A stretch of DNA of 57,538 bases, taken from assembly GCA_032718475.1 (NCBI GenBank), contig JAUCBJ010005502.1:1-57538 (forward strand). Direction: 5' to 3'. The notes beneath the pieces are model-generated. The model saw only the letters and a program-made list of their open reading frames with translations, did no database searches and was not told where the DNA came from. Origin of the DNA: Nemertoderma westbladi. Lineage: Eukaryota > Animalia > Xenacoelomorpha. The position numbers were made by a program, and so were the translations under genes. Shown piece after piece: positions 6,237 through 57,538 of the stretch; positions within the stretch are counted from its first letter, which is position 1, and the number at the start of each line of letters is the position of its first letter.

Positions 6237-6871
6237 GACATCAAAGCAGTATTATTAAAAGCGAGAAATTGAATGGTTATTCTTAGAAAGACATCCTGAC
6301 AGTTGTATCGGCATTGAATGGGCACAAGGAAGTGCGACACTTTCCTTCTATCAGTTGATGGGTGATCCTACGAAATCATCAGATGACTTGCTGGTTCCCC
6401 AGCACAATAAGCTTTCGAGGAGTGGAACTATTCTGCCTACATCGCTTCTTGGAATGTTTGGTGTGGCAAACTCAATTGTAAAGCAAACTGTTACACCTAA
6501 TTTATCTACTACATCCCAGTGTCAAGAAGCTGATAAAGAACATCATCCAATTTTGCATCTGGAAAAAGGTTGGGCCTGGAATTTTATCATTATGGTCCCA
6601 TTTATTACTGCACTATCGAAGAAGTCGGCAGCTTACGCTGGCTGTTCACTGGTTCTTTATGGATATGGCAACGTGTGACTCCGTCTAGGTCGCAATGCCA
6701 AAACGGGGCTGCCAATGCCAGCACTCAAAGCGAGATGGTAGAAGTTGCAGCAGGATCTCGAGGTGTAAGTGTCAGCGTCGAGGGCGGCCTTGCAACAACT
6801 GCATCAGGAAGGTGTGACAATCCATGGAATCCGGACAGCAGCTGGGCTTCCAAACGAATAATGTCGTCCCT

Positions 6872-11039: not shown

Positions 11040-11671
11040 CACACAAAGGAAACTCTACCACGATCCGGAGATTCTATCATTTACTACAAAGTCGCGGTTT
11101 CTACAGACGGGAACCACATTGCATCGGGAGTCGAGGTACCGGGAAGGGAGTTAGTGGTTGGTGGGAGGGTGGGTGAATGGAGGGAGGGAATATATATAAA
11201 TCCCTCCAACCGGGACGTCATTGCAACATGTGGGTTCAACGGGGGGGGATTTCATTAATATCAATAACTGCTAGGAACTATAAGGTTACTAACTGGGAGA
11301 ACTATAAGGTTAGTACTAACTGGGAGGGGCATTCTGGGCGTGTTTACTGTATTCGGTTCAACTCGAACTGGTCCCAGTTGGCCAGCTGTTCGAGTGATAG
11401 TACAGTGAAAGTTTGGTGGACTGGAACACGAGAGCTTTTGTACGGGGCACAGTGGCAGAGTGGGGGAGGTATACAGGCTGGGTTGGGGACCGGGTGGGGA
11501 GTCTGTGGTGTCGGTAGGTGGGGGAGGGAGGATCGATCGCTTCGTTGTTGGTACAGGGGAGACCTTGTGGAGACAGGGTCCTGAGGATCGTAGGCATATG
11601 AATGGCCTCAACGGATGGGAGCCGCATCGAAGCTGTGGATTTCTGTAAAGATAAACGGCATATTATTACAG
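11040..11671 (+). pseudogene. WD40-repeat coding fragment, frameshifted
   Basis: GHSGRVYCIRFNSNWSQLASCSSDSTVKVW is a canonical WD40 repeat; neighbouring frames give further WD-like strands (VAVSTDGNHIASG, INPSNRDVIATCG); possible splice donor ag|gtaatt near 11671. Confidence 0.65.
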
Positions 11672-28559: not shown

Positions 28560-29800
28560 TTATTATGGATATTAATCCGGAGCTGACAGGGATTGCGATA
28601 ATGACTCGTTGGAACTGGAATCAGAGATATTGGGTCACTTTTCCCAGACTTTCAGGCAACTAAAACCAGATGAAAATCTCATGAATATCAACATTGATAA
28701 TGGTTATTTATCTGAATCAAAATTTAACTGTAATTTCTCCCACTTACAAAATTCAAACTCCCTATCAATATTTCATTTTAATTATAGAAGCCTAGCGAAA
28801 AATAAAATCTTCCCTCATTGATTTCTTCCTTACTCTTAATTTAAATTTTGACATACTAATGTTTTCTAAAACCTTTATAGCGGATGATGACAATAAACAA
28901 TTACTAAAATTCAGTGGTTATCAAGGACTGTTCCTTGATAACCAATCCATAGGTAGATTACATCAAGGAAGCACGGCCATATTTGTCCGTGACTCCCTCA
29001 ATGTATCTCAATGAGATGACCTTAAAATTTGGGGCCTCAAAAATTCTTCGATCCAAATAATGTATAAAATGGATCAACGCTTCAAAACACAAATTCTAGG
29101 TACTATTTACAGTACTGATGCTATTTCATTTGATACTTTTTCTTCTCGACTAGATACTATACTAACCAATCTAACCAACCGAAACTATGGTGTCATAATC
29201 ACAGGAGACACTAATATTGACCTACTAAAATCTAATAAACAATCTAAACAATACATTGAACTGCTGAACTCATACGGATTCATTCAACTTATAAATAACC
29301 CTACTTGCGTAACTCTCTGGTCAAAATCCATAATAGATCATATTATCACAAATATTACTAGCTACTAACTCTGGGGTCTTTGAGCTTAAAATTGGCTCCT
29401 CCGATCACTACGCTACATTTACTATTCTATGAAACTACTCCTGCTTCTTCAATAAGCCTAAAAATGAATAAATTTACGACTTCTCAAATTTTATCTCTAA
29501 TAATTTTTTAGCTGATCTATCCACAAACACCTGGTTGTACAACTCACCAACTATACCAAATAATGAAAAATTCGACCACTTCTACAACAACCTCGGGATA
29601 ACACCTAACCTTTTCAATTGCAAAAAATAAGCTCTACCATATTTATATAAAAAACCCTACTGACACCATGCATGTGCATCTAAACTTCAAAAACTACCGG
29701 AACAAACTCACAACTATTCTACGCAATACAGAAAAAGCATATTACACTTCCCAATTCGAAGTAAACTCAAAAAACACACGAAAAACGTTGATTATCATCA
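28560..29800 (+). mobile_element. Decayed CR1/L2-group non-LTR element, APE endonuclease and linker
   Basis: SIFHFNYRSL, IITGDTNIDLLK, QLINNPT.V...SIIDHII, SDHY, FKNYRNKLTTILRNTEKAYY. Confidence 0.85.
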
Positions 29801-29804
29801 ACAA

Positions 29805-31600
29805 CGCATCAACAATGTACAGACTCAGACACTTTTACTTCTATAAAGTTATCAGGCAATACCCTGTCATTATTGAGGAGCTTTTCAAAGTGGGCATTCC
29901 AACCATTGAGGTGATCGGCTGGTGATTCTACCTTAACCCTTGGTGGTTGGTTGGCTTTTCCACCCAATAAGCAAGTTGATCAATTTCCATCCCTGAGATG
30001 ATTGCCTGCTGTTGTCCGCATCATTGATGGCATCAACCTGTTGGTTTATTAGCTCCTGCAGATTAACAGAGTACTGCCTGTTCAGGGACCTAGATACAGC
30101 ATTAACTGCATTCTTTGCCGCTGTAGTCTGTTAGAGTCGGGACTCTTTCTGCACCTTATAGAGGTCCAGGGGGCCCTTTTCCTGTTACAATGGTATACAG
30201 GAACTGTTGCTGCAGCTGCTAACTTAACTGCTTCTGTGAAGGCAGTATAGCCCTCTCAGTGATCTGCAGCCTCAGAGGCAAGAACCTCATACCTGTTGCT
30301 CAGCTGTAGTGTGAATGAAGCTGGATCTCACACTTGGCTGTTGCTACAGAGAGGACCAGTCATACCATGGCAAGGTAGATTTCGTTGTTCTGCTAGCACG
30401 CAGACTAAGTCTTACCTTGGCCACAATAAGGCTGGAGAAGGGTCGAAATGTAAAAGCATTACAGTCTTGTATAGAGCTCTGTATTTCCTATCTGGGACTA
30501 TCTGTAGTCTATCTGGGACTTGTGACCACTGGGTCCACTATGAGTCCATAGCTTTCCAGTTCACTTCTTGAACTGGGTTCCAGCTGAAAACAATCCATTT
30601 GAAGAGATAAAATCCTGAAGATGGACGGAATTTCGGTTAACACTATCGCTATAGACCCAGGGCAATGTAGGTGATTGATGCAGACTTGCATTAAAGTCTC
30701 CCAGGAATGTTAAGAATGCATGCTGATCCACTCCATCAGTAGCTGCATGTAGATTGTGGTAGAAATTTTCCACCTCCTCTACAGGGGCAAAACTAGTTGG
30801 AAGGTAGCACACAATCAGAATCACCTTAGGAAACTTCTTAGACAGTCTTCCAGAACATGAGAAGTGGCAACGGATGATCCAGTTAGAGATTTGGTCTATT
30901 TTGTCCAATGCTGCATGTGCAGTTTGATTCATCAATAGACCAATTCCACCATTGCCACTATCATCTGCTGATGCAAGGGCGAGTCACCAACCACCCCCAT
31001 GTCCTTAATCAGAACGTCATCAGTCTGTCCAGTATGCATTCGGTGCTCTTGAATTCCCACTGCTCTAAGAGAAAGCTTATCTGCCAAGGCAGTCAGCTCA
31101 CCTTGTCGCATTGGGGACCTGAGTGTTAGGGTGTTAACTGAGGCTAGTCTAGTGACTTGCCTTAGATTCACCAATGGCTTAGTTGGTCGGGGTGGAACAT
31201 GAGAGTAGCCTCCAACTCCAGAATACCTCTCCCCTCACAATCTGGCCTCCCTGGTGACCCAGGGTTTGGGCCAGAAAGGTCATCAGGAAGAGGAATCACA
31301 TAATTGTTGGCTGCTCTCTCTCCAGTAGGGGGTGAGACAGGCCGGTCAGGAGATAACTGACGCCTGTGAGGCCAATTGTGGCCTGGTTTACACCCTGGTT
31401 TGCCATTCCACAGGGTGGGTGTCGCAGTGGAGTCAGATATGAGGCCCATCACCCATACCTACTCTGACGCACATGAACCACCATTGGTTGTGCAGCTCAT
31501 CTGCTGGGCCATGCCTTATACCCTTGCAGTCGCAGTGAAGTGCACTCAGAGTGGACATGAAAACACTCTACTCCTGACCAGTCATTGGTAGATTACCATC
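29805..31600 (-). mobile_element. Decayed RTE-like non-LTR element, 5' region with APE endonuclease
   Basis: ASVNTLTL, VGIQEHR, LIVCYLPTS, FLGDFNA in ORFs 31174-30932 and 30935-30561; GC-richer block. Confidence 0.8.
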
Positions 31601-32380: not shown

Positions 32381-34779
32381 ATCTCAAAATAAACGATTAT
32401 TTATATTCCTAGCCAGTCAGTGGCATCTCTCCCTGCCTGCCTGCCTGACTATTCCTATGACTACCTACCTATTAATTTATGCTCAACCTGTTTAACTAAT
32501 ATTCCTACAGAGTCTGTATTTATTGTATTATTGTGTTTATTGCTTTAGCTAAAAGACAGATTTAATAATGATTGTCAATAATATTAAATACCAGAACTGT
32601 AGGCTTATATCCGAAATAGTTTATACCACAAAATATTGGGCTGGCTATTTGTTAATGGGATTTCTGTGGAATGATCTAAAAATATTATTATTATTTTATT
32701 GAGTCCTTATAATTAGCCAAATTGAATACCAATTTGAGTAACTAAAGCTACTTCAACTAAGCCTACTAGTCCATTTTTTCCTTTTCAAAATAAGAACTTA
32801 GATCCTTGTCCAGATTATTTTTTCAGTTTGGTATAAGACACTGTCTTTTTGACACACCCAAACTTCTCTTCGTCTCTGAGTTTCATTAGACTGTTTTTTT
32901 TCTTTATTTATTGAACAATTGTTACTTCTTTTTTTTCCTCTAGGTGGATTATTATTTTTTTTTACTATATTTGCCCTTGTTTTTTGTCCAATAATTTTTT
33001 TTTACATTTTCTTTTCTCCCATCTTGTTTTCTCCCTTCTTGTTTTTTCCCTTCTTGTTTTCTCTGTTCAACACTGTTCAACCATCTTATTAACCATCCAT
33101 ATTGACCGCAAGGGATCTGGGGGGAGACAAATAACCTGGTTTGGTTAGTTCCTATGAATGGAATGGGTCTTGGAAGACAACCTCTGGGTTGTAATCGATG
33201 AGATCCAACAGGATAGTACCCATCCCAGCAGTGGTCTCACAGATATACTGTACAACCACGTCACCACATCTCCCCAACCAAATGAAATTGCTTAAATCCA
33301 AAGTGAAACGAGAAACACGAGGTAGCATTGTAAGTTCAAGCACTTTGAGAGGCAGCAATGAGTAAAAAGTCTCCAAGATTGGGTTTCCTGAGTCCCGGAT
33401 GAAGTATGGGAAGTTGACTCAATGCATTGCGGTGGATCTGGGTAATCCTTCTGGTAGGTCCGGAATAGGCATGGATTGAAATCTCCATATATATATATAC
33501 ATATATAAATCTCTATTTGAATTCTCCATATATACATGTGTAATGTATATTGGTGGTCTCAATGATGGTTAGTGTACCTTAAAACAAAATGTCAAGGTCA
33601 GGTCAGGTATTCTAGGTCATTGATCAAGAAAACTACTAGCCACACCATGACTCATAAATTATTCCATGCAAATATATAATTGAGAATTAAATTACCGGTA
33701 TATATTACATTTACTAGCTAATAAAACTAGCTAACACAAAATCAAAAGTACTAGCTACCATCTTACTGTCAGAAGGTCAAATATTTGTTCTAGATAAAAA
33801 AACCTCATAATAAAGTACATTTTTACAAGAAAAAACTTGGTAATTTTTTTTTCAATTTTTCAATTATAATTTTTTTCACTAGCTAATAAAAAGTACTAGC
33901 TAATACAAAATCAAAATTACTAGCTACCATCATACTGCCAGAAAGGTAAATATTTGTTCTAAAACATTAAACCTCATGATAAAAACCATTTTCATATGAA
34001 ACAATTTGTTTAAAAAGTAGGTACCCATAACATAGTAGTACCCACTAGCTACCATATAATATATATTAAGGTTCTAGAATATTCACCATTATATAGTACC
34101 AATTAAATTTGGTCCCGGACAATTCGGTCCCATTAATATGCATGTTTTGGGACCGAATTGTCCTAGTCAGTATCCAGACAATTCGGTCCCGGACAATTCG
34201 GTCCCGGAAAATTCGAAGCCTTACCCTTTAGAAACTTCGGCATAAATTCTAACCGCTGATTATCATCCAATTCAGGACACTCCAAATGTACACATACGCG
34301 TTTTTTGAATGCTGGAAACCTTGATGGCTCACCAGAAAATTTTATAGGATTTATGGAAATTTATTTCCATATTGTATTGTATTTTAGCAAGAACAACGTC
34401 TGGCCTTGGCTGCATATTACTGGGATCCTTTTTAACAACATTCGAACCATAGCCATTATAAAGTACATTAGATGATACAGGTTCATATACCATCTGACTT
34501 TGGTAGTTACCAGAGGTTGTATAGTTAGGTTGTACATTTTGATACTTGTATTTCACTTCAGTACTATTGCTTATATTTTTAGCTATTGTTGGTGCAACAC
34601 CAACATCACCATAACAAATTGGTTGATGTTGTTGTGATGTGGGTAAAATATTGGAGCGTTTACTGCAAGTTTGCTTGTACTGGAACTTATAATTGTAGAT
34701 TCAGTTACTTGATGTATAAACAATAATAAAATCTCCTGAAAGGAGAACTTAGACTATATGAACAAGATAACGACAACAA

Positions 34780-36855
34780 TTAAATAGTTGGAATATTATC
34801 GTTTATCTGCGGCAATAATGCCCTATTATACTGATCAGCTAAGTAGAGGACCATCGGGTTGTGGATCATCGATTCACTGCACTTGTCCTCTGAGGACTCG
34901 CCAGGTAATTGTACCACAAGTCTACCGTTTATGGTGGCGCAACCCATGATGTATATCCTACGGAAGTTTGCCAAGAACCCCTCTAATTCATTGTTATTGC
35001 ATACAGCCAGGAGAATGTTCTCGGCATGTATTATTTTCGCTATCCCCTCCAATTTAGTGAGAGTGCTCGGTAAATACTCGGACCAGTTTGTTATTCCGTC
35101 AGATTCGATGAGTTGCATCGCCAGCGAGTGTATAATACTCGCAGTTTGAATTCTTATACGCGATAGTCCTCGGTTGTGCCGTATTTTAACCGGCCACATC
35201 CCTAAATGGTAGCATATTATTGCTATATCTGCTCTAACTCCTTCGCCCGGTTCCTTATAGTAGAAGATAGTACAGTCATGATATATCTCCTTTGCTCGTG
35301 AAGCGACGGCACGATCAACCATTTGGAATACGACGAGTGGTAGTTTTGAAGAGTCACTAACCAAATGGGCGGGACCCTTTATTACAGCTCCATGTAACAT
35401 CCTGGTACTCTCAGTCCCAGTTCCCTCTGTTGTGATGATCGGTAATATGACTACCCCGTCGTTCTGATTTTACATGTACGAAGCTACAGGTCTCAACATG
35501 GCCTCATACATCGAGATATACTCGTCACCCAAACTGGGACTGAAGGTGGATAAGATCTGGTCACTGATGTTTATCGCTTCGTCATTGACTGCGTTGTAAG
35601 ACTTACGTCCCAAGGGAGGAAGAATTCCGTCAGGGGTTGGACTACCCAGGTAGGCGACGAACTCTTCAATGATCGGATCCGCTTTAGCTGATTGAATCGT
35701 AAAATTATGTAGAGACATTCCCTCATCTATAAATATTCTTTTCCTAGACTCCCTGGCGCGACCCACGCCAAATAATGTCTTCTCCGCTCCCGATATCAGA
35801 TCGTTAGATCTCCTAGGTTCCTTCATGTTATTAGCCCAGTGCGGTAGGCACTTCTGCACTGTAATTTCGAACTCTCTGCTTGTGCTTTGATCTGGCACTA
35901 GATGTAATAGAAAATTTTCACATGCCTTAACGTTTGTAGTATTATCTTTTAACGGCGCTTTTCGCATCCGTAGCGGGAACATGGTTTTCCATTTTATGCA
36001 ACAACCCTCATTAAGAGGGGTCTTGTCAGCGTGAGTAAGTACCTGGAAAGATGTTCTCGGGGTATACATGGTCTGCAATGAAATTCTAATACATTCGTTA
36101 CGGAGATCTAACCGCTTGATTTTACACCTCGATACAGCTTGAGTTGGATCAACTTCTCTCTGGTTGAAGAGGGTTAAAACCTCTTTGGGCATCTCGAGAA
36201 CTTGAGGGGCCTCATTAGTCCTGGCTGCAATCCTGATACGCTCACAGTCATAATCCGATAATTGTAATTTAATGTTAACTAGAGCGTCCTTAATATATAA
36301 TATTTGTTGAGAATTTAGCGCACTAACGTCACCACAGAGTATTTCGGGTTGGAAAAAGTCAACTGCTATTATTGTAGTGAGATTCCTCACTCCTTTGACG
36401 ATTAGGGTTTCTACCTTGCGGTCGTACGATCGTAGAGCGTTTCCAATGTAAGACACCGCTATTTCCACTAACTGCGGTTCAATGTCTGGTTTTACAGGGG
36501 CTTTGTTTTTATTGTACTCAGTACCATTCTTGATAATCCCTTTCTTGATCAGGTCCGGCATGTAGTTCTCTAACTTATCGTCCCATTCGGGTGGAGTATA
36601 CAACCAGTGCTTTGAAATGGCAGTTCCTCTGTCCAATCCTTCTAGCACGATGTACTCATCAACCATATGGTCTCTTTCTAAACTACCTTTGATTAAGAAG
36701 CAGTCGTGAACCTGAGAACAAACTATGTAGTGAATGCACCACATCCATTTGGATAATGAATGTTGCTCTTCATTTCCTCTAAACCACCCCGGGCGGGTGG
36801 TGTCGGGTATCAATGATAGGATTTCAGCGGGTATCATGCTGAGCAGTTTAGACAT
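34780..36855 (-). pseudogene. PA: Endogenous viral element: full-length orthomyxovirus-like polymerase acidic subunit (PA) with one premature stop
   Basis: Collinear PA motifs CIHYIVC, VLEGLDRGTA, YMPDL, LVEIAVS, YDRK, ILPII, LHGAVIKGPAHLVSD, ELEGFLANFRRI, ESMIHNPMVL; ORFs 36855-35470 and 35400-34780 are in the same frame, separated by a single TAA and 23 open codons. Confidence 0.93.
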
Positions 36856-36866
36856 TTTATTAAGAA

Positions 36867-36881
36867 CCTCTTGCTATTGCT
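36867..36881 (-). promoter_or_regulatory. Putative viral segment terminus AGCAATAGCAAGAGG (copy 1)
   Basis: Begins 26 nt before the PA ATG; resembles the influenza positive-sense 5' end AGCAAAAGCAGG. Confidence 0.7.
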
Positions 36882-38399
36882 GGACGAGACAATTCGACAA
36901 CTTATTCGACAACTTAGGCAGGGATATTAAAGTTTAGGAGAATAACGACTGATTTGTTAATGGGATTTCTGTGGAATGATCTAAAAATAATATTATTATT
37001 TTATTGAGTCCTTATAATTAGCCAAATTGAATACCAATTTGAGTAACTAAAGCTACTTCAACTAAGCCTACTAGTCCATTTTTTCCTTTTCAAAATAAGA
37101 ACTTAGATCCTTGTCCAGATTATTTTTTCAGTTTGGTATAAGACACTGTCTTTTTGACACACCCAAACTCCTCTTCCTCTCTGAGTTTCATTCGACTGTT
37201 TTTTTTCTTTATTTATTGAACAATTGTTACTTCTTTTTTTTCCTCTAGGTGGATTATTATTTTTTCTTTGCTATTTTTGCCCTTGTTTTTTGTCCAATAA
37301 TTTTTTTTTACATTTTCTTTTCTCCCATCTTGTTTTCTCCCTTCTTGTTTTTTCCCTTCTTGTTTTCTCTGTTCAACACTGTTCAACCATCTTATTAACC
37401 ATCCATATTGACCGCAAGGGATCTGGGGGGAGACAAATAACCTGGTTAGTTCCTATGAATGGAATGGGTCTTGGAATACGACCTCTGGGTTGTAATCGAT
37501 GAGATCCAACAGGATAGTACCCATCGCAGCAGTGGTCTCACAGATATACTGTACAACCACGTCACCACATCTCCCCAACCAAATGAAATTGCTTAAATCC
37601 AAAGTGAAACGAGAAACACGAGGTAGCATTGGAAGTTCAAGCACTTTGAGAGGCAGCAATGAGTAAAAAGTCTCCACAAGATTGGGTTTCCTGAGTCCCG
37701 GATGAAGTATGGGAAGTTGACTCAATGCATTGCAGTGGATCTGGGTAATCCTTCTGGTAGGTCCGGAATAGGCATGGATTGAAATCTCCATATATATATA
37801 CATATATAAATCTCTATTTGAATTCTCCATATATACATGTGTAATGTATATTGGTGGTCTCAATGATGGTTAGTGTACCTTAAAACAAAATGTCAAGGTC
37901 AGGTCAGGTATTCTAGGTCATTGATCAAGAAAACTACTAGCTACACCATGACTCATAAATTATTCCATGCAAATATATAATTGAGAATTAAATTACCGGT
38001 ATATATTACATTTACTAGCTAATAAAACTAGCTAACGCAAAATCAAAAGTACTAGCTACCATCTTACTGTCAGAAGGTCAAATATTTGTTCTAGATAAAA
38101 AAACCTCATAATAAAGTACATTTTTACAAGAAAAAACTTGGTAATTTTTTTTTCAATTTTTCAATTATAATTTTTTTCACTAGCTAATAAAAAGTACTAG
38201 CTAATACAAAATCAAAATTACTAGCTACCATCATACTGCCAGAAAGGTAAATATTTGTTCTAGAACATAAAACCTCATGATAAAAACCATTTTCATATGA
38301 AACAATTTGTTTAAAAAGTGGGTACCCCTAACATAGTAGTACCCACTAGCTACCATATAATATATATTAAGGTTCTAGAATATTCACCATTATATAGTA

Positions 38400-38612
38400 C
38401 CAATTAAATTTGGTCCCGGACAATTCTGTCCCATTAATATGCATGTTTTGGGACCGAATTGTCCTAGTCAGTATCCAGACAATTCGGTCCCGGACAATTC
38501 GGTCCCGGACAATTTGGTCCCGGACAATTCGGTCCCGGACAATTCGGTCCTGGAAAATTCGGTCCCAAAACACAAAATTAATGGGACCGAATTGTCAGGG
38601 ACCGAATTGTCC
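38400..38612. mobile_element. MITE-like array of 16-bp ggacaattcggtccc(n) repeats in both orientations; shorter counterpart at 34100-34215
   Basis: Direct repeats plus inverted gggaccgaattgtcc copies. Confidence 0.7.
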
Positions 38613-39094
38613 TGCTTCCATAGAATTCTTTGAACAGCATATTTTTAAAGAACGCTCCAGAACATCCAAAGCCTTACCCTTTAAAAACTTCGGCATAAAT
38701 TCTAACCGCTGATTATCATCCAATTCAGGACACTCCAAATGTACACATACTCGTTTTTTGAATGCTGGAAACCTTGATGGCTCACCAGAAATTTTATAGG
38801 ATTTATGGATGCTAGGTATTGTATTTTAGCAAGAACAACGTCTGGCCTTGGCTGCATATTACTGGGATCCTTTTTAACAACATTCGAACCATAGCCATTA
38901 TAAAGTACATTAGATGATACAGGTTCATATACCATCCGACTTTGGTAGTTACCAGAGGTTGTATAGTTAGGTTGTACATTTTGATACTTGTACTTCACTT
39001 CAGTACTATTGCTTATATTTTTAGCTATTGTTGGTGCAACACCAACATCACCATAACAAATTGGTTGATGTTGTTGTGATGTGGGTAAAATATC

Positions 39095-40492
39095 CCTACC
39101 CCATCGTTCTGATTATACATGTACGACGCTACAGGTCAACATGGCCTCATACATCGAGATATACTCGTCACCCAAACTGGGACTGAAGGTGGATAAGATC
39201 TGGTCACTGATGTTTATCGCTTCGTCATCGACTGCGTTGTAAGACTTACGTCCCAAGGGAGGAAGAATTCCGTCAGGGGTTGGACTACCCAGGTAGGCGA
39301 CGAACTCTTCAATGATCGGATCCGCTTTAGCTGATTGAATCGTAAAATTATGTAGAGACATTCCCTCATCTATAAATATTCTTTTCCTAGACTCCCTGGC
39401 GCGACCCACGCCAAATAATGTCTTCTCTGCTCCTGATATCAGATCGTTAGATCTCCTAGGTTCCTTCATGTTATTAGCCCAGTGCGGTAGGCACTTCCGC
39501 ACTGTAATTTCGAACTCTCTGCTTGTGCTTTGATCTGGCACTAGATGTAATAGGAAATTTTCACATGCCTTAACGTTTGTAGTGTTATCTTTTAACGGCG
39601 CTTTTCGCATCAGTAGCGGGAACATGGTTTTCCATTTTATGCAACAACCCTCATTAAGAGGGGTCTTGTCAGCGTGAGTAAGTACCTGGAAAGATGTTCT
39701 CGGGGTAAACATGGTCTGCAATGAAATTCTAATACATTCGTTACGGAGATCTAACCGCTTGATTTTACACCTCGATACAGCTTGAGTTGGATCAACTTCT
39801 CTCTGGTTGAAGAGGGTTAAAACCTCTTTGGTCATCTCGAGAACTTGAGGGGCCTCATTAGTCCTGGCTGCAATCCTGATACGCTCACAGTCATAATCTG
39901 ATAATTGTAATTTAATGTTAACTAGAGCGTCCTTAATATATTGTTGAGAATTTAGCGCACTAACGTCACCACAGAGTATTTCGGGTTGGAAAAAGTCAAC
40001 TGCTATTATTGTAGTGAGATTCCTCACTCCTTTGACGATTAGGGTTTCTACCTTGCGGTCGTACGATCGTAGAGCGTTTCCAACGTAAGACACCGCTATT
40101 TCCACTAACTGCGGTTCAATGTCTGGTTTTACAGGGGCTTTGTTTTTATTGTACTCAGTACCATTCTTGATAATCCCTTTCTTGATCAGGTCCGGCATGT
40201 AGTTCTCTAACTTATCGTCCCATTCGGGTGGAGTATACAACCAGCGCTTTGAAATGGCAGTTCCTCTGTCCAATCCTTCTAGCACGATGTACTCATCAAC
40301 CATATGGTCTCTTTCTAAACTACCTTTGATTAAGAAGCAGTCGTGAACCTGAGAACAAACTATGTAGTGAATGCACCACATCCATTTGGATAATGAATGT
40401 TGCTCTTCATTTCCTCTAAACCACCCCGGGCGGGTGGTGTCGGGTATCAATGATAGGATTTCAGCGGGTATCGTGCTGAGCAGTTTAGACAT
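39095..40492 (-). pseudogene. PA: Second, 3'-truncated copy of the orthomyxovirus-like PA element
   Basis: Nearly identical to copy 1 over ~460 codons; 6-nt in-frame deletion, 2-nt frameshift near 39137, then deletion of the C-terminal third. Confidence 0.93.
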
Positions 40493-40503
40493 TTTATTAA
40501 GAA

Positions 40504-40518
40504 CCTCTTGCTATTGCT
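40504..40518 (-). promoter_or_regulatory. Putative viral segment terminus AGCAATAGCAAGAGG (copy 2)
   Basis: Same motif and spacing as copy 1. Confidence 0.7.
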
Positions 40519-41968
40519 GGACGAGACAATTCGACAACTTATTCAACAACTCGAGACAACTTAGGCAGGGATATTAAAGTTTAGGAGAATAACGACTGAG
40601 ACAATATATATATACATATATTTCATGTATTAACAAATCTCGGTATATTGCCACGTCGAAACTAAAACAAACAAACGATATCAGTGTTCAGAGTTGTACT
40701 AAACTACAAGTCAAATAATTATAGCATATGATTTGTACTGTATATAAAATAACTGAAAATAAACCACGATTGAAATGTATAGGCTGAATAGATATGATGA
40801 CAAATATTTTAATACTTATATATATTTAAGGACAAATATTTTAATACTTATATATATTTATATATATATATTTATTACTTATATATAATATTTATATATT
40901 TATATATATATATATTTATTTATATTCATCTAAATATAGAACTAGTAGTACGAGTAACATTATATATAATATATATACGGATCTGCTAATAAGTTTAAAT
41001 ACATACCTTGTCTCCACATCAAATATATCGAGATATTCAAATCCAAGATAATCAATAATGATACTACATAAATCTACAATATATAACTAGAATGGCTATG
41101 TATAACTTTAAAACTAATTGACACAACGCAAAACTAAACATTTGCAGCTAATAAATACTTAACGTGTACAAGCAAATTGTACAGTAAAACAATATAACTA
41201 CAAAACTGACTGAGTAAAAAACTAATAAACGAATTTGAATGATCGTACTAATGTTACTGTAGCTTACCTATTATAGGCAAACCAATAAACTATTAATTGT
41301 AACAACAAAATCAGCCAAAATGCAAAGCTACAGCTGTATCACAGCAATCACATATGAATGCATCAAAAAACAATATTAAATTAGCTCTAATATATATATA
41401 TAGGTGCCAAGTTCAAATTCATAAGTACTGCCTAGCTGGCAGTAACATCTAGCCTGGCTAGTTTTAATATGTAATTGGTTAGAACACAAAAAAATGTTGT
41501 GTTTGGTTTGATAATTCTGAAGGTATATGGATTTTCGAGGTCGCTGATCACGATGAAACTTGTTAAAAATATTTCTGGTAAGTCAATCATTTTTTGTGCC
41601 ATTTTTCATACCTCAGGATAAAAAGTAAAAGTAGCAGTAAAAGAAGTAAATATTTGAACATGCTGATACCTATTTCTTCAAGAAGGTAACTTTTAAGAAG
41701 ATATGTAAGACATCTGGAAATATGTATGAAACTGTTGTTTCATCGGGTAAACTCTACTACTGTTGGCTTACCGTCAAAAAGGGAATGAAAGCAGTAGCCA
41801 GCTCAGTGTGAAAGCCATCTGCTAGTGGCAAATACCACTAACTTCGCTATTATAAGACTGTGATTTGAAGGAACTCAAGTTAGAATGTGAGTCTAGCCTG
41901 AATCATCTCAGTTACACAAAGGCAAATCGTCAATTTACCATCACCACAACGAATTACTGTTTTCAGAC

Positions 41969-42547: not shown

Positions 42548-42889
42548 AATAACCTTTCGATGCAAACAAAATGCATCCATCTCCAGGGGAAAATCGTTGC
42601 AAAGAACACCTGATTACTCCTAAAAATAGAACTGTAACCTGTTATATTGACTTTTGTTTATTGTTTTTGGTTGGAATAACGTGCACTTTACGTACCTGCT
42701 CCTTTTCCTAACTTGATAATTTAACATTGATACGAAATATTGATGCGCCGAGATGAGAAGTGCGTCCAGGGCTCACCCCCCCTCTCCCCTTATATCACAT
42801 TTTAGCAGTTGTGTGTCATTATCTGCACAGTATCATTACTATTATAGGGTAAATCTTTTCGACCTACGCATACGCCTACGCATAGCTAC

Positions 42890-43738
42890 GTGTAGTTTCA
42901 CGGATACAACAATCATAGTTGCGAGTTGATCCTCATAAGATAAACCGTCGAGTTCTGCTTCTGCCCCAATTGCTTTAAGTCGGACCAGGTAATCGCTAAG
43001 TCGTTCCCCTTTAGCTTGGCGACATTTTTGGAAGTTTACTCTCAGTGTCAGTACAAAATATTTCTGCTCAAAGTGTTTAGTAAGTCGATCCTAACAGTCA
43101 TTGATAGGGACTGAATCATCTGCCCCAAGGATTTGTATCAGTTCGTGTTTCATTTTCTCTGAGAGACATTTCTCCAAGTGGCCCCGGTATGCATCTAACG
43201 GGAGGCGATTCATGTTATTAGCTGTGGAATATCGAATAAACGCTTTTTTCCAGCTTTTGAATCCAATAAATGTTGTATCGGTTTCGAGGCATATCTCAGG
43301 TTTCAGAGAAGAATCTATCTTTGGATGTCTATCACTGCGTTCAGGTGTTGTAGTTCTCGCAGCCTGTAGATTTGCATGAACTGGAGTTTTTGTGTTAAAT
43401 TGTATTCTACAGCGTCTAATGTGACGGCGCAGACGTCCCAATTCATCTTCCAAACTTAAATATTCTATATATCTAGGTTCTTGTTCGGAAGTATCTTCAT
43501 CGAGTCCCTCAATCCGGTGACTTCCATTGACTGAATTCAGGAATTTCTCTATGGATCCTTTGGCCAACGTAAACTCATCCTCCGTTTCCGCCAAGTCAAT
43601 TTCATAATCTGGATCATCAGTGTCTTTGTCAACTAAACAACTAACGTAGGTCTCCAGTTTATCAATAGCCCTTTTGGCTTGTAAGGCGTACTGGCCACGG
43701 CTTCGCCGGGCTGTCGTAATATCGCCCTTCATTGACAT
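42890..43738 (-). mobile_element. Ty3/gypsy gag, one premature stop, 3'-truncated
   Basis: LKPEIC...FKSWKKAFIRY; reads past the stop into RVNFQKCRQAKGERLSDYLVRLKAIG (major-homology-like region). Confidence 0.8.
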
Positions 43739-43824
43739 TTTGTGGCGTTTACCGGTAGAGATCAGACATCCATCATTAATGAATATTAGGTAGGCTTATA
43801 ACATAGGTACATAACGCAGCGCCA

Positions 43825-45147: not shown

Positions 45148-48100
45148 ATGTCTGACACAAAACGGGCACTGTCAGATAGTCTTTTGAAAGGTGTTAGAAT
45201 GAGTCTTCGACTTGGACAGTGTCTTGAAAGGATAGAAGACGGAAAAGAAGCGGAAAGAAAAGTAGCAGCGGCAGAAGCGGAAAGAAAAGCGGCAGAGGCA
45301 GTGGCAGAAGCAGAACGGAAGGCGTCTGAAGCGACTACCCAACTAGAGCTTGAAAGCCTTCAGGCGAAACAAGATTACTTGAAGAAACAAACCGGAAGAC
45401 AGGGATTTGTCCCCTCCGATGAGGGTGATGTAAGAGATCCCGAAAGTGGAGGTAATAAATCTCGTTCAAGCGGACGTAGAAGAAGCCACACCGTCGGAGG
45501 TTGTCTGATTTCCCTCTTGGGGTGAGAGGGCGAATCTTGTATCATTCATTAGGTAATCTTGAACCCACAGACCAAATTATTACAGTAGAAAGACTCCCTA
45601 CTATAGTAGATGAGCCTGAAATAATTAGGCCTGTTCTCGAAGCCACCCCTTCGGTGATAGAGACACCTGTACTCCCAGAACCTACCTCTAAATTCCCTTT
45701 GCACAGCACGAAACTACCTGTGCCCAGTAGGACTGTTCCCGAGTCCGAACCCATCCCGGACGCCGAGCGAGATATCGAGAATTTATCACCCGTCGTCTCT
45801 CGCTTGCCCGCTACTACGTTGGCGACTCCCGCTTCGGCGGTCGAGTGGGTAGCTGAGGGATGACGGGAGATGGGTCTCCTGCTCGGGCAGCTGAGGGAAC
45901 ATTGTAAATGTTCCTCCCAGCAGGTCCGGGAGTTGGAAGGGACTGTTCAGCAGTTAAAGGGAGCAGTAAGAGAGGGTAGGTTAGCGTTGCAAGAAGTGCA
46001 GCAGAGTATCGCGTCAGAACGCGATAAGTTAGTAAATTTACAAAAGGGTATACCACCACCCTCTGTAACAATGTGTCAACCTGTTAGGTCTGAAGTATTT
46101 CATGCGCAAGGTGTGGAGCCTACACGCATCTATACTGCTAGTGAAGTAGAAACTCCTATAGTAAACCCTATTAAGGGTAATTATAAACCTGTTGACAGTG
46201 ATATTCCATATAGACTTGATAATAATCCGAGAAATTTATATACCGATAACTCGATATTAAATAATACGATGGCCCAAGAAAGTTTTACGCGTCAAATGGC
46301 TAGAACCGAAGCCCGTCAAGCGGTAAAGATGGGAGAGATCGTCAAGTTCAATGGAGATGAGATGAAATGGTTACCTTTTAATGAATATTACAAAGATAAC
46401 ATACAGCACTCCGTGTTATCTAACGGAGAAAAGCTTAGATTCCTCATCGAGTGCTTGGAAGGATCTCCCAAGTTAATGGCGTTAAAGTTTATTGGACATC
46501 CAGATGGATTAAGACAAGTTTGGGATACATTAAACATGAGGTATGATAATAGGAATAACATAGCTAGGTATTTGTATGCAAAATTAATGGCGCCCCGAAA
46601 GTTTCTTAGCAGCGGGATTATAGAGTTTTCCGACGAGATTCAGGAGATCTGTAGACCTGCTAGATTGGTTAGGTAAGTCTCGTGAATACCAGAATTCTAT
46701 GGTTGTAGGAGCCTTAGCATCTACTTTGCCCAAGGGTGGAGTAGGTACACGCTGGGACAAGAATGTGTTATATATGATGGAACAACAACGAAGAGACCCT
46801 ACCATGGCTGATCTCATGTCATTCTTAGATGGAGAGGTAAAATTACAGCTTCTAAAACAGTCCAGAGAGAAGACACCGGAAAATAAGGTAAGTGAGAAAC
46901 CCGTTTCTAGGAGAAAGGTAATATCAGTGTGTTATACAGACGACGGCGAAAGCCAGGCTTCTCAAGAGGAAGACAGCGGGAAAGACACTGAAAGATCTTA
47001 CTATGACAACACAACGCCTAAGGACGTAAGTAAATTCAAGTCTCGAACCAATGACAGGAGAGAACAGGTAAGAAAAACTCCTCCCACGTCTCCTAAAAGA
47101 ATTCACGGAAGAAAGCCCGAGGAAAGAACGAGCGTGCACCACACAGCACATTTTAAAGTAAGTAACATCAAGCCCAAATGTGTGTTGTGCGACGGGCCCC
47201 ACCGTTTAAATGTGTGTAATGAATTCCTAAAGAAATCATTAAAGGATAGACGTGAAGTCATGTGGGATAAGCGGTTGTGTTATAATTGTCTCAGACGAGG
47301 ACACCAACGGCGAACCTGTTACTCTGACACAAGATGTGCCAAGTGCGGTGCGAAACATCATATCTTGTTGCACACTGAATTCGAGCGAAATAGTCCGAGT
47401 CAGGTAAGTGATTCCGAACTACATGTCCAATTCAGTGATGTGAACGACACTGATCAATCTGAGATGGAAGGATTCTATACGGACGAGTTCTCCGACGAAA
47501 ACGAATCCTGTTACATGATAAATACCACAGTGTTCGAGCACTCATTTATGAAAAAGATACAGACATTGACCTCGCTCTAACTACTTCTGATCGACAACCA
47601 TCTTGGAAAGCGCCAACTTCCAATGTAGGGATTAGAGAATTTCCTGTGGTACAGGTAAGGGTCCACGGACCAAAAAGGAGTTATGTAGTGAACGCCCTCC
47701 TCGACTCCGGTAGTACAGGAACATTCATCGACAAAGAGCTAGCCGAAGACATATTCGCTGGACAACCCAAGTTCCGAACTAAGCTAAACATGTCAGGGAT
47801 TATGCAAGTTTGGAAATCCACAGTAACAGCGGACTATTATGTAGGTGCGTTGTCCACCCCCCAGGACGAACTAGGAGAACATAGCATAAGGTCAGTGAAA
47901 ATGGTGGCTATAAAGAACTTCGCTACTACTCAAGCAGACCTTTATAATTGGTGTGGGATGTGGTGTGGTGTGGGGTGTGGGCGCTATGTGATGGGACCCA
48001 TCGCTTAAATATGTGTGATGAATTTCTAAAGAAATCATTAACTGAGAGACGTGAAGTCATGTGGGACAAGCGGTTGTGCTATAATTGCCTCAGACAAGGA

Positions 48101-49452
48101 CACCAACGGCGAACCTGTTACTCTGACACAAGGTGTGCGAAGTGCGGCGCAAAACATCATATTTTGTTGCACACCGAATTCGAAAGAAACAGCCCGAGTC
48201 AGGTAAGTGAGTCCGAACTACATGTCCAATTCAGTGATGTGAACGACACTGACCAAAGTTCTGAGATGGAAGGATTCTATACGGACGAATTCTCCGACCA
48301 AAGTTCTGAAATGGAAGGATTCTATATGGACGAATTCTCAGACGAAAACGAATCCTGTTACTTAATAAATTCCGCAGTGTATCGAGCACTTACGTATGAG
48401 AAGGAAACCGACAGTGAGCTCCCCCTAACTACTTCTGATCGACAACCATCTTGGAAAGCGCCAACTTCCAATGTAGGAATCCGAGAATTTCCTGTAGTAC
48501 AGTTAAGGGTCCACGGACCTAAAAGGAGTTATATAGTGAACGCCCTCCTTGACTCCGGTAGCACAGGAACATTCATCGACAAAGAACTAGCCGAAGACAT
48601 CTTTGCTGGACAACCCAAGTTCCGAACTAAGTTAAACATGTCAGGAATTATGCAGGTTTGGAAATCTACATTAATAGCGATTATTATGTAGGTGCGTTGT
48701 CCACCCCCCAGGATGATCTAGGAGAACACAGCATAAGGTCAGTAAAAATGGTGGCGATAAAGAACTTCGCTACCAGCCAAGTAGAACCTTATAACTGGGA
48801 TGAGGACGATTCCACCCAGCAGCTTAATATACCTAGATTCAACACAGATTACCCTGGAGTGCAAATACTCATCGGCCAAAATGCGCATGGGGCGCTTGAG
48901 ACATTGGAGAAACGGCCTGCTCAACCGCAACCGCTACAAGCCTATGCGGGAAGAACTAGAGTAGGTTGGTACCTTACTGGCCCTTCCCGTAGAACTCTCA
49001 TCGAAAGGTCACCAAAATAACGGGTATACCAAGTAAGCGAATGGGAAGCGGAGAGCAGTGAGGTAGACGACCCAACTGAGGGAACACCATACTCCTCAGA
49101 TAATGACGATATTAACTCCAATGTAGATCAATGGAGACATTGCCCCGAGACGATTAAACTAGCCAGCATCGCTTACAGAGGAGCAACTCCTCAAGAACTG
49201 ACAGATACTCCAGACCGGTTAGGTGGACCCGACTTCCTAAATAAAGAAGATGAATGGCCTCCTCATCTTACCCCGGCAAAGATTAGACAGGCCAAGGGAG
49301 CAGAGAAAGTAACACAACCACTCAATCGCCCAGCTGGTCGTTTATGTTTACTGGAAAGAGACCGAAAACTGTCCGGAAACTATGGAAGGCAAGATACTCT
49401 TCCCACGACCACCTCCCTAATCCAACAAATATCTAGGGACTCCATAACTTAA
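45148..49452 (+). mobile_element. BEL/Pao LTR retrotransposon derivative: gag, triple zinc knuckle and protease (knuckle-protease block duplicated), with RT and integrase deleted
   Basis: KFNGDEMKWLPF...LSNGEKLRFL (DUF1759-like); CVLCDGPHRLNVC / LCYNCLRRGH..C / CAKCGAKHHILLH; VNALLDSGSTGTFI; remnants WRHCP...RG, GPDFL...WP and RPAGRLCLL. Confidence 0.92.
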
Positions 49453-51072: not shown

Positions 51073-52619
51073 ATGGATAAACTTATATAGCAGATATGAT
51101 TGAGTTGATAGAAGATGATCTTGGTATCAGGGAGCGATATACTCTACCTTTACAAGCGTTTGTTGATAAGCTTGATACGCGGCGACGCTGGTCCAACTAC
51201 TACGGAGGACGATGGTCGTTATATCGAACCGCCAATGTCCCGGGAGCAACTTGCGCGTGGGTTGGACTGTAGAAAATTCACCGCTCGCTATACGCATCGT
51301 AATGGTACGTATATGGACTTCTTAACTACTGGTCATCCTATCGACCTACACGATACGAACGATATAGACACCAAAAGGGAAATGGTTTATTTAAATATCA
51401 TACCCAGCGGAAGCGGAACGATAAACTGAGACTCGAACACGAAAATTCTATTCGAAACCGACTCGAAAGTGCAGATGTTGAAGAGCCGGATAAACGCAGC
51501 GACTTCACCAAAATATCTGGAATTCTTGAGAGAAACATATCTCGATATTACCAGTCAACAGAATCTAGAAACTCGATATCCTCAAGGTATATATCATGAC
51601 CGCATGGTAGAACTCAAACGGCTCTATTCCACTATGATGTATCTTACCGCCGATCGACCGCTACCTGTTGTACCGGATAGCTTCGAACAGATGGAGGAAT
51701 ATTGTAAGCTGGAGAAAGATCACTCGCGTTTCCCCTACAAGACGTGCGTCTTTGGTATTATTGCGATGAATGCCCTAGACCCAACCAACAAACGGAAAGA
51801 CCTAAACATCCGCGGAGACGTTGCACTAAACACGGTTTTACTCGCTATACTGGCGGGAGTTTCGAGCGAAATTTGTTTGACGTATCACCTACGCTCGTTC
51901 GACTCAGACGATCCTTAAATAAACCAATGATCAGAGTTTCGGAATACTCGATCAGACCTCCTCATTCCCTAGTGAGACCTCAGACTCTTGATCCTATTAG
52001 TATGACGGATCCTCCCGAGCTGTACTCACTGTTCAAAGATCTAGTGTTACCTGAACAATTAGTCGGTGGCACCCCGGTTGTGGGCTTCCTAGATATTAGC
52101 CCATCCTACCTAGCCGGATTGGGACGCGGACATTTAATATCGCCGTTTAACCCTTACCATCGTCCCGGCTTAACACGATATAACCTGTCACCAAAGTGGC
52201 GGAGAGCGTTGTACCCAATGAGTTAGACGCTATTCTACAAAGATCAGAAAAGGAACTTACGCTTGTTCAGATAAACGTAAATTGCACTAGCAAGTCCAAG
52301 CGGTAAACAAAGTAACTTTATCTCAGTTCGATCGGGAAATCCAGAATCTCTAAGAAGTTATCGAACTTGGACGACCCTATTCTCTGCGAGAGTTTTTGGA
52401 TGAACGTATCCAGCTACGAGCGGAGGAAAATCAGCTCGAGGAGAAGCATATCGAAACGGCGGATACCCCGACCATAATCCTACACCTTCTGATGCAATCA
52501 TATTGCACCCTTCACCCAGGAGTTATGGCCCTCCTAGTAAAGTGGCTCCCCCCAAAGAGAAAAGGACTCTTGCTAGCTCTAAAAAACTGCGTAAACGCCG
52601 TCCACGCAAGACAGACTAA
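51073..52619 (+). pseudogene. Decayed intronless ~500-codon gene of unknown family with a basic C-terminus
   Basis: ORFs 51115-51429 and 51469-51918 share a frame across one TGA; further collinear frameshifted ORFs end in SSKKLRKRRPRKTD*. Confidence 0.55.
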
Positions 52620-53301: not shown

Positions 53302-55641
53302 TATAGCAATTGCGACTTATATTATCGTGGTTTGTAGTGAATTGAATGCTATTTTATAGGCCCTACAAATGTCGGTTGCTATTCTCTTTATATATGATTA
53401 AAATCAGTGACTATCGGCAATTCAGTGTGCAGCGGTGTGCAATAGTCTGTATGTGCTTGTCCGTGTAACAAAGCATCTCCTAAAGAATGCGCCTTATGTG
53501 TAACTTATAATCCATTCCGTTGTGTTTAGTGTAAGCCATAGCTCTGTTTATATAGATAGAGCGCCACGTCCTAAAGGAACTGCTAATATTTCCCGAAAGT
53601 GAATGATATTTGTCAGAGATTATATATTAACGATCAATCGAATAGTACGGTAGGCCTGCACCGCAATCAAATTAAAGCATCCGAATCCAGTCTCCCGGGT
53701 ATATCCAGCGGGTGAATGGTCGCGCATAGACTGGCTTCGGCTAATGTTGGATTTATTTGTGTCAAATACTTGTCATAGGCTAAAGTCGATTTATAACCTA
53801 GAAGACATATAGATTTGGCGGGTTAAACTGCCAAAGGTCTTAAAAGCGCGAACAACTATATTGTTAAGCAATCAGGTAGAGATCGTCAAATTGTCTGAGG
53901 AAATATTATGTTATGATTAATTCCCTGCTATATGATTAATTAACTTTGCCACCCTGAAGTTGTTGGCTGATGCTACAAAACATCAAAAACTTGCAAAGAT
54001 AAGTGACGAAAGGCTCTCCCTTACTATTCAATTGTCAATTCCATAGACCACGAGTCGGTTAACTTGTAGGTATTTAGTTGGAATACATATTATGATGTGG
54101 ATCATAATATGATGTAACATCTCACAGTTTAATTAAATGAGAACTGCCAATCAATCAATCAATCAATGTATATTTTAACCCATATGATAATTTATAGATA
54201 TATGCACATGTTACTTCAATATATAAATATAATACAGTATATATGCATTTACATGATAATAAGTGCACTTTTTTAAGGAGAAATTCGAATGGGTTTGGAG
54301 GGCAGCCAAATAGCGTAGCTAGTGGACGGCTGCTCGCCAGAAAAGGTACATGGCTTGAAGTAATATCGGTTGTGGGGTTGGGGGGGGGGGGGGGGGGGGG
54401 GGTAAGTGTAATAGAGTAGAATGTAGTAAGGGTAGTAAGTGTTAGAAAATAGTAAGCGGTGATAGGGTAGAGCCCATATATTAGCCCCATATATTAGCCT
54501 TTTGAATAAGATTTAGTATAAGTTGTAATGGTGTAGATGGAAGTGAGTTAAAGTAGTAGATCACTGAGATTTATTTTTTATAGTTATTAATATATATCTT
54601 GTCAATGTGTCACCAAGGTCAAGGTATCACGCGATTTGAAAGGGGTACATCTAGGGGGGTGGTGTAAATACTGGTATTGATAGGACAAACGATTACAATT
54701 AAAACACAATACAGTTCATTTCATTTATGTGGTCTAAGCCACCTTCTATATGGACCTACGAATAGATGTATGTATATATTAATATATATCCTGATTGAAC
54801 ACATATACATATCTTGATTGAATATACACATATATATATATATATATATACACAAAATGTAGCAGAACCGTCACTAATATATATTTTAAAGACATACATA
54901 TGGTTTTATATTAACATTTCTTATATTTTAATTTTATTATATAATACATTTTATTTAACTATTTTATTATTGAATAAATCAAAATGTTTAACATTAGAAA
55001 CAAATTGCTTTTTGCAAATCATCATGGTTCGGCTGCTATGGTCAATATACATATAATTTTTGTATTCTGAAACTGAATATACAAAAACCCTTCAGTTAAT
55101 GGGAAGATTTGACGGCTATGCTACTTATATATATTAAACTTTGGGAGTGGTGATGGTAGCATTTCGAGATATCTTTAAAAACACAGATTATTTCTATATA
55201 TAGAATTTGTACATATAGCGAATATACAAACCGCTATAAAATGCTACATTTTGTTATCCTTAATTATATTAAATAATACTGTAGCCCATTAGTAGCAAAG
55301 TGAAATTACTATATGGAATTTAGTAATATCTGAAAATGTAAGGAAACATATGTAAGACTGCTATTGAGAAATATATAATGTAGTAGAATAATTGGGGGTC
55401 CCTAGCTTCTGTATGTAGGACGTAGAAGGCCACTGTTATTATAGTAGTAGAGTACCGCCGTGCTATTTCAGTATTTAGTCTGTGCGATTTTGTGCTAGTT
55501 TTATTCTGCAATTTCCAATCATTACAAATTAGGCCACTTATTTTCGTATTTCGATAGAACTATGTGTATTATGCATTGATAATGACGCAAATTACGAAAT
55601 CTATCTATCGAAATCTATCTAAAATTATTCGAAATATATCC

Positions 55642-56197
55642 ATCCAACATCCATGATGGATCCGTCCAACATCCATGACGGATCCATCCAACATCCATGA
55701 CGGATCCGTCCAACATCCATGATGGATCCGTCCAACATCCGTGATGGATCCGTCTAACATCCATGATGGATCCGTCCAACATCCATGACGGATCCGTCCA
55801 ACATCCATGACGGATCCGTCCAACATCCATGATGGATCCGTCCAACATCCATGATGGATCCGTCCAACATCCATGACGGATCCGTCCAACATCCATGATG
55901 GATCCGTCCAACATCCATGATGGATCCGTCCAAAATCCATGATGGATCCGTCCAACATCCATGATGGATCCGTCCAACATCCATGATGGATCCGTCCAAC
56001 ATCCATGATGGATCCGTCCAACATCCATGACGGATCCGTCCAACATCCATGACGGATCCGTCCAACATCCATGATGGATCCGTCCAACATCCATGACGAA
56101 TCCGTCCAACATCCATGACGGATGCGTCCAACATCCATGACGGATCCGTCCAACATCCATGACGGATCCGTCCAACATCCATGATGGATCCGTCCAA
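55642..56197. repeat. 22-bp minisatellite (catccatgayggatccgtccaa) x ~25
   Basis: Directly visible; explains the three overlapping repetitive ORFs. Confidence 0.97.
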
Positions 56198-57538
56198 TAT
56201 AAATCTCTGACTTTAAGTCTTATAAATCTCAGTCTGTCTGTCTCGCGATACAATAATAGAAAGCTAACTTGAGCAACGTCACTATCTCGTCATATTTTAA
56301 GTATTTGTTTGCGTGAATCGAATGTGGTCAAAGTGGATTATTTTGCATCGTTTTAGGCCCAAAATATATTACTGGTCAGCAATAGGGACTCAGGCGACTT
56401 TGTAACTGCAGTTTCACCATTAGACTAAGACTAAGGCTGTTCTAACTGAAACTTTGCAGGTATGTATGTATGTATGTACCACAGAGATCTCACGCTGCCT
56501 GTTTGAGTGAGAGGACGCCGACCAGCCTACAGTTCTTCAATCTGCTGCTTGGGTGTGTAATCTCTGAGAGTGAAACCATTCCCATCACCAATTTTATTGT
56601 TTTTGAGCTGATACTGGGGAAAGATCTACTACAAGATTGGATTCGTGTTTGGGAGGAAGCTGAAGTTCTTCAGTCTACCGGTAGTAGGTGGAATGTCTGA
56701 AGGTGAAAAAGTCCTGTATTTTTGTTGTTTTTAATGCTTTTCGAGCTGATGCATGGCATATATAGATTACACCACAGGCGGTTGCGTGTTTAGGAGGACG
56801 TATATTATTCGGCAGTTCACCAGCCTGTCACTAAGTGTTAGCTTATTCAATCCCGCTAACACCCCATAAAGTTTAGCCAATAAGCAATATTGGGAGCCAC
56901 GAGATTGGGTAATTAACCAACTCGTGCCATCCCAATAAGAATGGGAAGGAAACACACAATGAGGGTCAGGGGCCAAACCCCTAACCCAGAGAGAACAGGT
57001 GGAGTGAACGGGAACACTCCAAAGGGCGCCAACAAGGGTATCAACCAATCAGAGGGGGGAAAGGCATCGATTAGGTAGAGTAACAAGGCCAACCGTGCAA
57101 TATAGCCACTTGGCAGTAATCATATCAATTCAGTTATCTCAGTGCAATACTGGTGCTAGTTTAGGTTGCATAGTTTAGCTAGGGAAGGACCGGGACTTTA
57201 GTTACCGTATCCCGCCTTCCGTGTACAACAACAATATTATCTCATATCTATATCTGTATCTATATCTCTATACCCAAACATTATATACGACGTATCATTC
57301 ACTCTTTACACACGGCGGGGATGCGTAAACTAACAACGGATAAACCGGGATCCCTCTTGGATCCCATCACAGTAACTAAATCCGAGCTGCTGCCCTAGTT
57401 AAACTGTAACAACTGCTGCCCTAGCTAGCTGAACTCCACCGATCACCAACCGAGATGAGTCAGTCGGGAGAGATAACACCGACGCGGACCCCGGACGAAG
57501 AGCTAACGATCCGCGAGGCCGCAACCAGGCGATACAGG

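Follow-up and report, generated by a model that had tools for sequence, protein, structure and literature searches.

The window analysed here is the whole stretch of 57,538 nucleotides of contig JAUCBJ010005502.1 (assembly GCA_032718475.1) from Nemertoderma westbladi. Its minus strand carries, from 36855 to 34783, a frame of 691 codons interrupted by a single stop, a TAA at codon 462 (35470-35472). A reading of this DNA made from its sequence only had described one frame broken once in this way, and translation of the region confirms it. The frame is an orthomyxovirus-type PA. The same reading placed the gene between 34780 and 36881; the virus-like part does start at 36881, with a terminus-like motif 26 nt ahead of the ATG that had been missed, as had a second copy of the gene outside these limits. 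The features of the locus are collected in Table 1.

Table 1. The two PA copies and their surroundings in the window.
Feature	Position	Strand	Remarks
5' untranslated leader, copy 1	36856..36881	-	26 nt; starts with the terminus-like motif AGCAATAGCAAG
Copy 1, open part	35470..36855	-	461 codons and premature TAA; endonuclease domain, linker, first part of PA-C
Predicted PA endonuclease domain, about residues 1-210	36226..36855	-	From alignment columns; H42, E72, D101, E131, K147
Copy 1, remainder after premature stop	34780..35469	-	229 codons and terminal stop; rest of PA-C
Downstream flank	34204..34779	-	Without Pfam match or recognisable viral 3' terminus
Upstream junction	36882..36952	-	Filler of about 29 nt, and 42 nt from a high-depth repeat (36911-36952)
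1.57-kb host repeat between PA copies	36953..38514		Part of the duplicated unit
PA copy 2	39096..40518	-	Same motif at 40518, ATG at 40492, about 99% like copy 1
1.57-kb host repeat, second copy	32647..34213		End of the 4.3-kb tandem unit

The identification as PA was made on the read-through protein (P0001), with an X written at the premature stop. Its score against the Pfam family Flu_PA (PF00603), 23.4 bits with E 2e-5, passes the cut-off of 23 bits, and among the sequences of solved structures it matched Thogoto virus PA (E 3.6e-15) and influenza D P3 (E 1e-5). An exhaustive phmmer search of 1.84 billion proteins gave 23 relatives, three of them full-length matches (E 1e-50 to 1e-42). These best three, Xinjiang sediment orthomyxo-like virus 1 and two metagenome proteins, are only 26-29% identical to the query, in line with the strong divergence that had been proposed for the virus. 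The profile of 15 relatives spans PA residues 6-680, and a profile of alignment A1 matched isolated influenza endonuclease domains with E 1e-15 to 1e-10; the endonuclease domain searched alone as a single sequence gave no match. Neither the read-through protein nor alignment A1 retrieved a homologue in word-index searches, which reflects the low sensitivity of such searches, since exhaustive phmmer did find homologues. Pattern searches returned 68 matches in JGI metagenome contigs, none of which was confirmed as a PA relative, and four in IMG/VR, of which one was. Eight motifs had been said to follow influenza A PA in order from end to end: all eight occur in the translation, whereas the influenza side of the claim stands only for influenza D P3 (6kuj), whose alignment pairs the VLEGL, IKG.H, EGF and NP motifs.

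The protein has the PA/P3 architecture of 600-750 residues, with an N-terminal endonuclease-like domain, a linker and the PA-C domain of Articulavirales, the last recognised both by sequence (PF00603) and by predicted fold. An AlphaFold model built from 26 sequences (mean pLDDT 80, pTM 0.60) matches known PA chains end to end, over residues 1-691, with a best E of 1e-27. In this predicted model PA-C superposes on Thogoto virus PA (8p0g) with Z 33.1 and an rmsd of 3.1 A over 396 residues, and on influenza PA-C with Z 29-30; the fold match partly depends on the sequence match, because the rows of the model's alignment are PA relatives. The high rmsd of the whole chain would fit a differently placed endonuclease domain. 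Flu_PA, Thogoto virus PA, the full-length phmmer matches and the fold thus agree with the identity first assigned to the frame.

The model of the endonuclease domain has a pLDDT mostly of 77-93, residues 52-64 excepted. H42, E72, D101, E131 and K147 stand at the conserved endonuclease columns, and we equate them by order, spacing and motifs, rather than by residue-level superposition, with the catalytic set of influenza, H41, E80, D108, E119 and K134 (PMC10709604). The same set, H-E-D-E-K, is found in the three best matches (P0002-P0004, besides P0001 itself) and also in two thogoto-type rows, and is therefore not diagnostic of the clade. Between D101 and E131 lies an insert of 19 residues that is common to the PA of copy 1, its three best matches and a protein of Owenia fusiformis, and that is absent from the 13 other rows of alignment A2 covering that part. 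The endonuclease domains of Thogoto and Dhori viruses are described as inactive (PMC10709604), whereas the PA of copy 1 retains all five residues at the matching columns. The source virus probably retained an active cap-snatching endonuclease, and the aligned residues suggest an active site common to the clade.

Which orthomyxovirus was the source? In a tree of 17 rows (LG+G4; seven rows left out, namely four fragments and three thogoto-type proteins), our PA belongs to a group of eight rows with support 94/91, apart from the thogoto-type rows, and a tree of 24 rows, a quick search only, gives the same split. Forcing it among seven thogoto-type rows of the 17-row tree is rejected (AU p = 0.0003). 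We thus rejected a thogotovirus identity, with the caveat that the row of P0001 meets long branches and that no starred small group contains it. An affiliation with influenza A as nearest relative was rejected as well: the closest proteins are unclassified orthomyxo-like PAs, followed by thogotoviruses. No influenza protein occurs among the 20 of the 23 phmmer matches that could be viral records, and the influenza folds score below that of Thogoto virus. The lineage outside known groups that had been suggested for this virus is upheld by phylogeny as far as thogotoviruses are concerned, but influenza, isavirus, Wenling and most quaranja-like PA sequences are absent from these trees. Judged by its sequence, the PA lineage is new, an unnamed orthomyxo-like clade.

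The closest relatives, Xinjiang sediment orthomyxo-like virus 1 (UMO75721.1) and two unnamed JGI proteins (P0003, P0004), resemble the PA of copy 1 over its full length, including the H-E-D-E-K set and the insert, but at the identity given above and across path lengths of 2.7-3.1 changes per column. Unlike our locus, these come from free contigs of 2.1-2.4 kb or from virus records in GenBank, for which no host is known. Thogotovirus PA (8P0B, 8Z85) and the PA or P3 of influenza A-D share the two-domain architecture and the PA-C fold, at 13-20% identity in structural alignments. In a library of viral folds, Wenling orthomyxo-like virus 1 ranked first (E 7e-44) and a whelk virus second (E 6e-31). 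The PA of the whelk virus falls in the same region of the tree (86/95, drawn open), but lacks the insert of 19 residues. We take these two viruses to be the lizardfish and whelk members of the provisional 'Metamyxovirus'. Whelk and lizardfish are listed among the hosts of this aquatic clade in PMC10636315, whose four supplements do not contain the names of the two viruses. 'Metamyxovirus' is the nearest named concept, although it is defined on PB1, and here there is only a PA, which groups loosely with that of the whelk virus.

The copies carry a trace of the segment end. The motif AGCAATAGCAAG lies 26 bases upstream of the ATG in both (36881 and 40518), begins with AGCA like the 5' termini of Thogotovirus and influenza, and matches in 10 of its 12 letters the 5' end of a complete PA segment from IMG/VR (L001), whose leader has 28 nt. 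Sites scoring as high number 16 in 115,076 positions, two of them being those of the PA copies, and the chance of such a match within 60 nt of the ATG is about 0.008. The motif thus corresponds to the conserved 5' terminus of an Articulavirales segment. The opposite end differs: near the PA stop codon there is no match to the 3' end of L001, the region 34600-34790 forms no specific duplex with the 5' motif, and no oligo(A) or A-run follows the stop codon, so that the partly complementary 3' terminus and the oligo(A) of such segments were not found. The claim of a full-length segment is therefore limited to the coding region, which is whole, and the 5' end.

Self-comparison of the window revealed a head-to-tail duplication of about 4.3 kb, each unit consisting of leader, PA, about 450 bp of flank and a repeat of 1.57 kb. 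The copies of this repeat are 98.2% identical, and the flank at 34204-34651 recurs at 38657-39093 (95%). The filler of the upstream junction contains short tandem repeats, and the junction itself is duplicated at 40519-40599. The second PA copy has an in-frame gap of 6 bp and a frameshift of 2 bp near codon 455, and is without about 800 bp that correspond to 35450-34652 of the first. No lesion is common to both copies, and the PA frame was therefore likely open when it was duplicated. The composition of the gene is foreign relative to the window (GC 0.437 and CpG o/e 0.92, against 0.386 and 0.75).

Could the locus be an artefact of assembly, or could the sequence of a live RNA virus have been fused with host DNA in silico? 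The region is rich in repeats, and the evidence consists of contigs, rather than long reads, of runs whose kind was guessed. We compared the window over 34220-37700 with the contigs, not the reads, of four runs. Three of the six listed runs (X1, X2 and X3) contain 76-84% of the sampled words; they stem from two samples (S1, S2) and two studies, one of which may be the source of the window, and their kind was guessed as DNA. In all three, contigs at 34622-35522 bridge the 3' end of PA to its flank, the premature stop is covered without difference, and the joint 34651-35493, the form of the deletion in the second copy, is present. The contigs of X1 and X3 reach 36940, 59 letters beyond the terminus motif, into a repeat of higher depth. 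Both ends of PA are thus bridged by contigs with at least 59 letters outside, in runs guessed as DNA, while no contig spans the whole PA stretch and the unique flank upstream of copy 2 lies outside the comparison. The coding region shows nine differences in the runs, seven of which are alleles of copy 2 and two private to X3. A replicating virus would not carry a fixed stop in PA, and it would not be duplicated together with 2 kb of host repeat. We rejected a live-virus contaminant on the fixed stop, the duplication with the host repeat and the agreement of three runs, and consider an artefact of either kind extremely improbable. Virus-derived sequence is joined to host sequence in DNA, and the same stop and deletion joint recur in both samples and both studies, as expected of an inherited insertion. 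The endogenous state proposed at the outset thus withstands the comparison of runs. A further run (X5), from a third sample with the same species label, extends over only some of the flanking repeat and does not reach PA, which is not proof of absence. No RNA run is among the listed runs that contain the sequence.

The depth of these contigs bears on a different question, whether PA travelled as cargo of a multicopy mobile element, the two copies being part of a larger set. From 36911 on, the depth rises about four- to six-fold, so that the flank has several times that of PA, and one joint in X2, from 34397 to 36911 at a depth of 578, skips PA altogether. Yet the short side of that joint counts only 24 letters at 90% likeness and is flagged unreliable, and the depth over the region that the copies have in common is 1.3-1.6 times that over the part found in copy 1 alone, a rough measure that fits about two copies of PA. 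The repeat of 1.57 kb has no coding match, and the copies stand head to tail, as in a local duplication. In X3, one contig departs from the window precisely at 36881, where the terminus motif begins, and continues into other sequence; this exit, which spread with an element would also produce, suggests another copy or junction in sample S2. All considered, we regard transport by such an element as very unlikely.

We consider the locus, with a probability of roughly 86%, to be a recent germline insertion of the PA gene of an unclassified orthomyxo-like virus, now broken, present in two tandem copies at host repeats and likely without function. Viruses of the Articulavirales have no DNA stage. 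The virus would have infected germline cells of the host, where an enzyme of a host retroelement would have reverse-transcribed the RNA of one segment; orthomyxoviruses replicate in the nucleus (PMC6580184). Host retroelements lie nearby (a Pao-type gag with protease, a gag and an endonuclease-reverse transcriptase piece), none of them attached to PA. The cDNA would have been copied from the exact 5' terminus through the stop codon, with loss of the 3' terminus, and attached by end-joining to the border of a host repeat, with about 29 nt of filler between them. We found neither poly(A) nor a target-site duplication at the insertion, which favours end-joining over clean, target-primed retrotransposition. 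End-joining also fits better because the filler gives way to the copy exactly where the terminus begins, and the copy ends soon after the stop. Lacking a 3' terminus, poly(A) and a target-site duplication, the route of integration is unproven. The unit of 4.3 kb would then have been duplicated while the PA frame was still open, and each copy would have broken independently later on. The copies would now be decaying, probably without function. A single stop over 691 codons and copies that differ by about 1% argue for a young insertion. The insertion is likely young and its copies near-neutral, as far as their divergence tells.

Some observations sit less easily with neutral decay. The copies differ by 13 substitutions in 454 codons, eight non-synonymous and five synonymous, and their pN/pS of 0.44 is below 1, though not distinguishable from neutrality (p = 0.17). 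In addition, their premature breaks fall within about seven codons of each other (codons 455-462), which neutral decay does not predict. These observations could be explained if the insertion had been co-opted, either with its first 455-461 codons, a complete endonuclease domain that lacks most of PA-C, serving as a nuclease or a polymerase decoy, or with antiviral piRNAs arising from the locus. In each copy about 455 codons remain open and the break arose independently, the only gap before the break is in frame, and all five catalytic columns are retained. PiRNA-like RNAs derived from endogenous viral elements (EVEs) have been reported in arthropods (PMC12810003, PMC6580184) and are suggested for a whelk (PMC6085071). 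Nevertheless, 13 substitutions give no power to separate selection from neutrality, and copies that diverge by about 1% should have an open frame and intact motifs even in the absence of selection. A single fragile site may explain both breaks, and there are three mismatches in the 42 bp before the deletion of copy 2. Finally, neither ORF product (copy 1, copy 2) is present in the protein collection searched. Co-option is in our view unlikely. Function is not needed to explain the locus, and only the near-coincident breaks leave room for a retained N-terminal product. A broader claim, that a non-arthropod animal domesticated the cap-snatching endonuclease of an unnamed influenza-like lineage and that the clade repeatedly enters invertebrate germlines, as Owenia and two long ENA contigs would suggest, we hold to be quite unlikely. 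If domestication were true, two copies of about 460 codons with five catalytic residues, having shed PA-C alike, would represent a host-encoded viral nuclease or decoy.

Returning to a decaying insertion, how does it compare with those already described? Orthomyxovirus insertions, including PA, are already known in arthropods; the clade is new and the mechanism is not. One study of mosquitoes counts 223 insertions by segment, none from PA and twelve of whole segments (PMC10956553), and a study of Chilo suppressalis gives 13, one from PA (PMC12810003). The literature on ixodid ticks describes insertions of PB1, NP and haemagglutinin (PMC10675110, PMC6580184), that on fireflies several orthomyxovirus insertions (PMC6191289), and a further study 67 RdRp-like sequences for which arthropod groups are named (10.1101/2024.09.25.614983). 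As far as these sources go, the arthropod elements resemble our locus in having one segment in host DNA, with stops or frameshifts and sometimes a whole or duplicated ORF, and are mostly quaranja-like and from NP, GP or PB1. The PA locus differs from them by its whole PA ORF with a 5' terminus and by its origin from another clade. Exogenous orthomyxo-like viruses have been described from molluscs, cnidarians, ctenophores, acoels and nematodes (PMC12277240, 10.64898/2026.08.30.748148, PMC12770441 and PMC6085071). A literature search that left most subscription papers uncovered found no orthomyxovirus insertion outside arthropods and none of this clade.

According to PMC10636315, on the aquatic origin of these viruses, the true hosts of Articulavirales are not verifiable from metagenomes. 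A germline insertion settles the host, and this one would anchor to a named animal a clade known mostly from sediment and metagenome contigs. It also contributes a complete coding region of PA, with a 5' terminus, to a branch whose PA is usually not found, as in Hydra metamyxovirus 1, whose PA is entered as 'can't find' in the supplement of PMC10636315. Among the relatives, CAH1803319.1 (P0022), an 'uncharacterized' protein of Owenia fusiformis, belongs as a PA to this clade (E 3e-6), with the insert of 19 residues and H-D-D-E-K at the catalytic columns. Two others, the PA fragments P0007 and P0021, lie on long ENA contigs (180 kb and 125 kb). On present sequence comparisons, these three are likely further unreported insertions.

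The rest of the window gave no sign of a second viral family. A Pfam scan of 259 frames (26 + 150 + 83) of the 290 listed with 55 codons or more detected no other one, which is weak evidence because PA itself barely passes. A tblastn of the 23 PA relatives against the window gave 31 matches, none outside the two copies, and Rfam gave no match. A frame of about 500 codons at 51081-52616 (+) is broken into several pieces and ends in a basic tail; its GC content is about 0.45 and its CpG o/e 1.25. It looks foreign and could be a gene of a virus or of a mobile element; as a possible second segment it had no match in Pfam, in PDB or among homologues, and its single-sequence model has a pLDDT of 45.

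Mobile elements are the other conspicuous component of the window. A BEL/Pao-type gag (DUF1759) with a zinc knuckle and a protease lies at 45864-48800 (+) and contains an internal tandem duplication of 800-850 bp at 85-90%. Retroelement debris is scattered at 42845-43795 (-), 29015-29365 (+), 30564-30983 (-), 4556-6680 (+) and 9295-9837 (-), and includes the gag and the endonuclease-reverse transcriptase piece recognised by Pfam. Some of these frames, without Pfam match, presumably resemble LINE endonuclease and CRE/SLACS-type retroelements. The palindromes TAGGCCTA and TACCGGTA occur 10 and 14 times in the window, where base frequencies predict 0.7; such enrichment occurs in genomes of marine invertebrates and is only a hint about the host. 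A fragment with a single WD40 repeat is found at 11177-11581 (+), and a minisatellite of 33/66 bp with open frames extends over 55605-56289.
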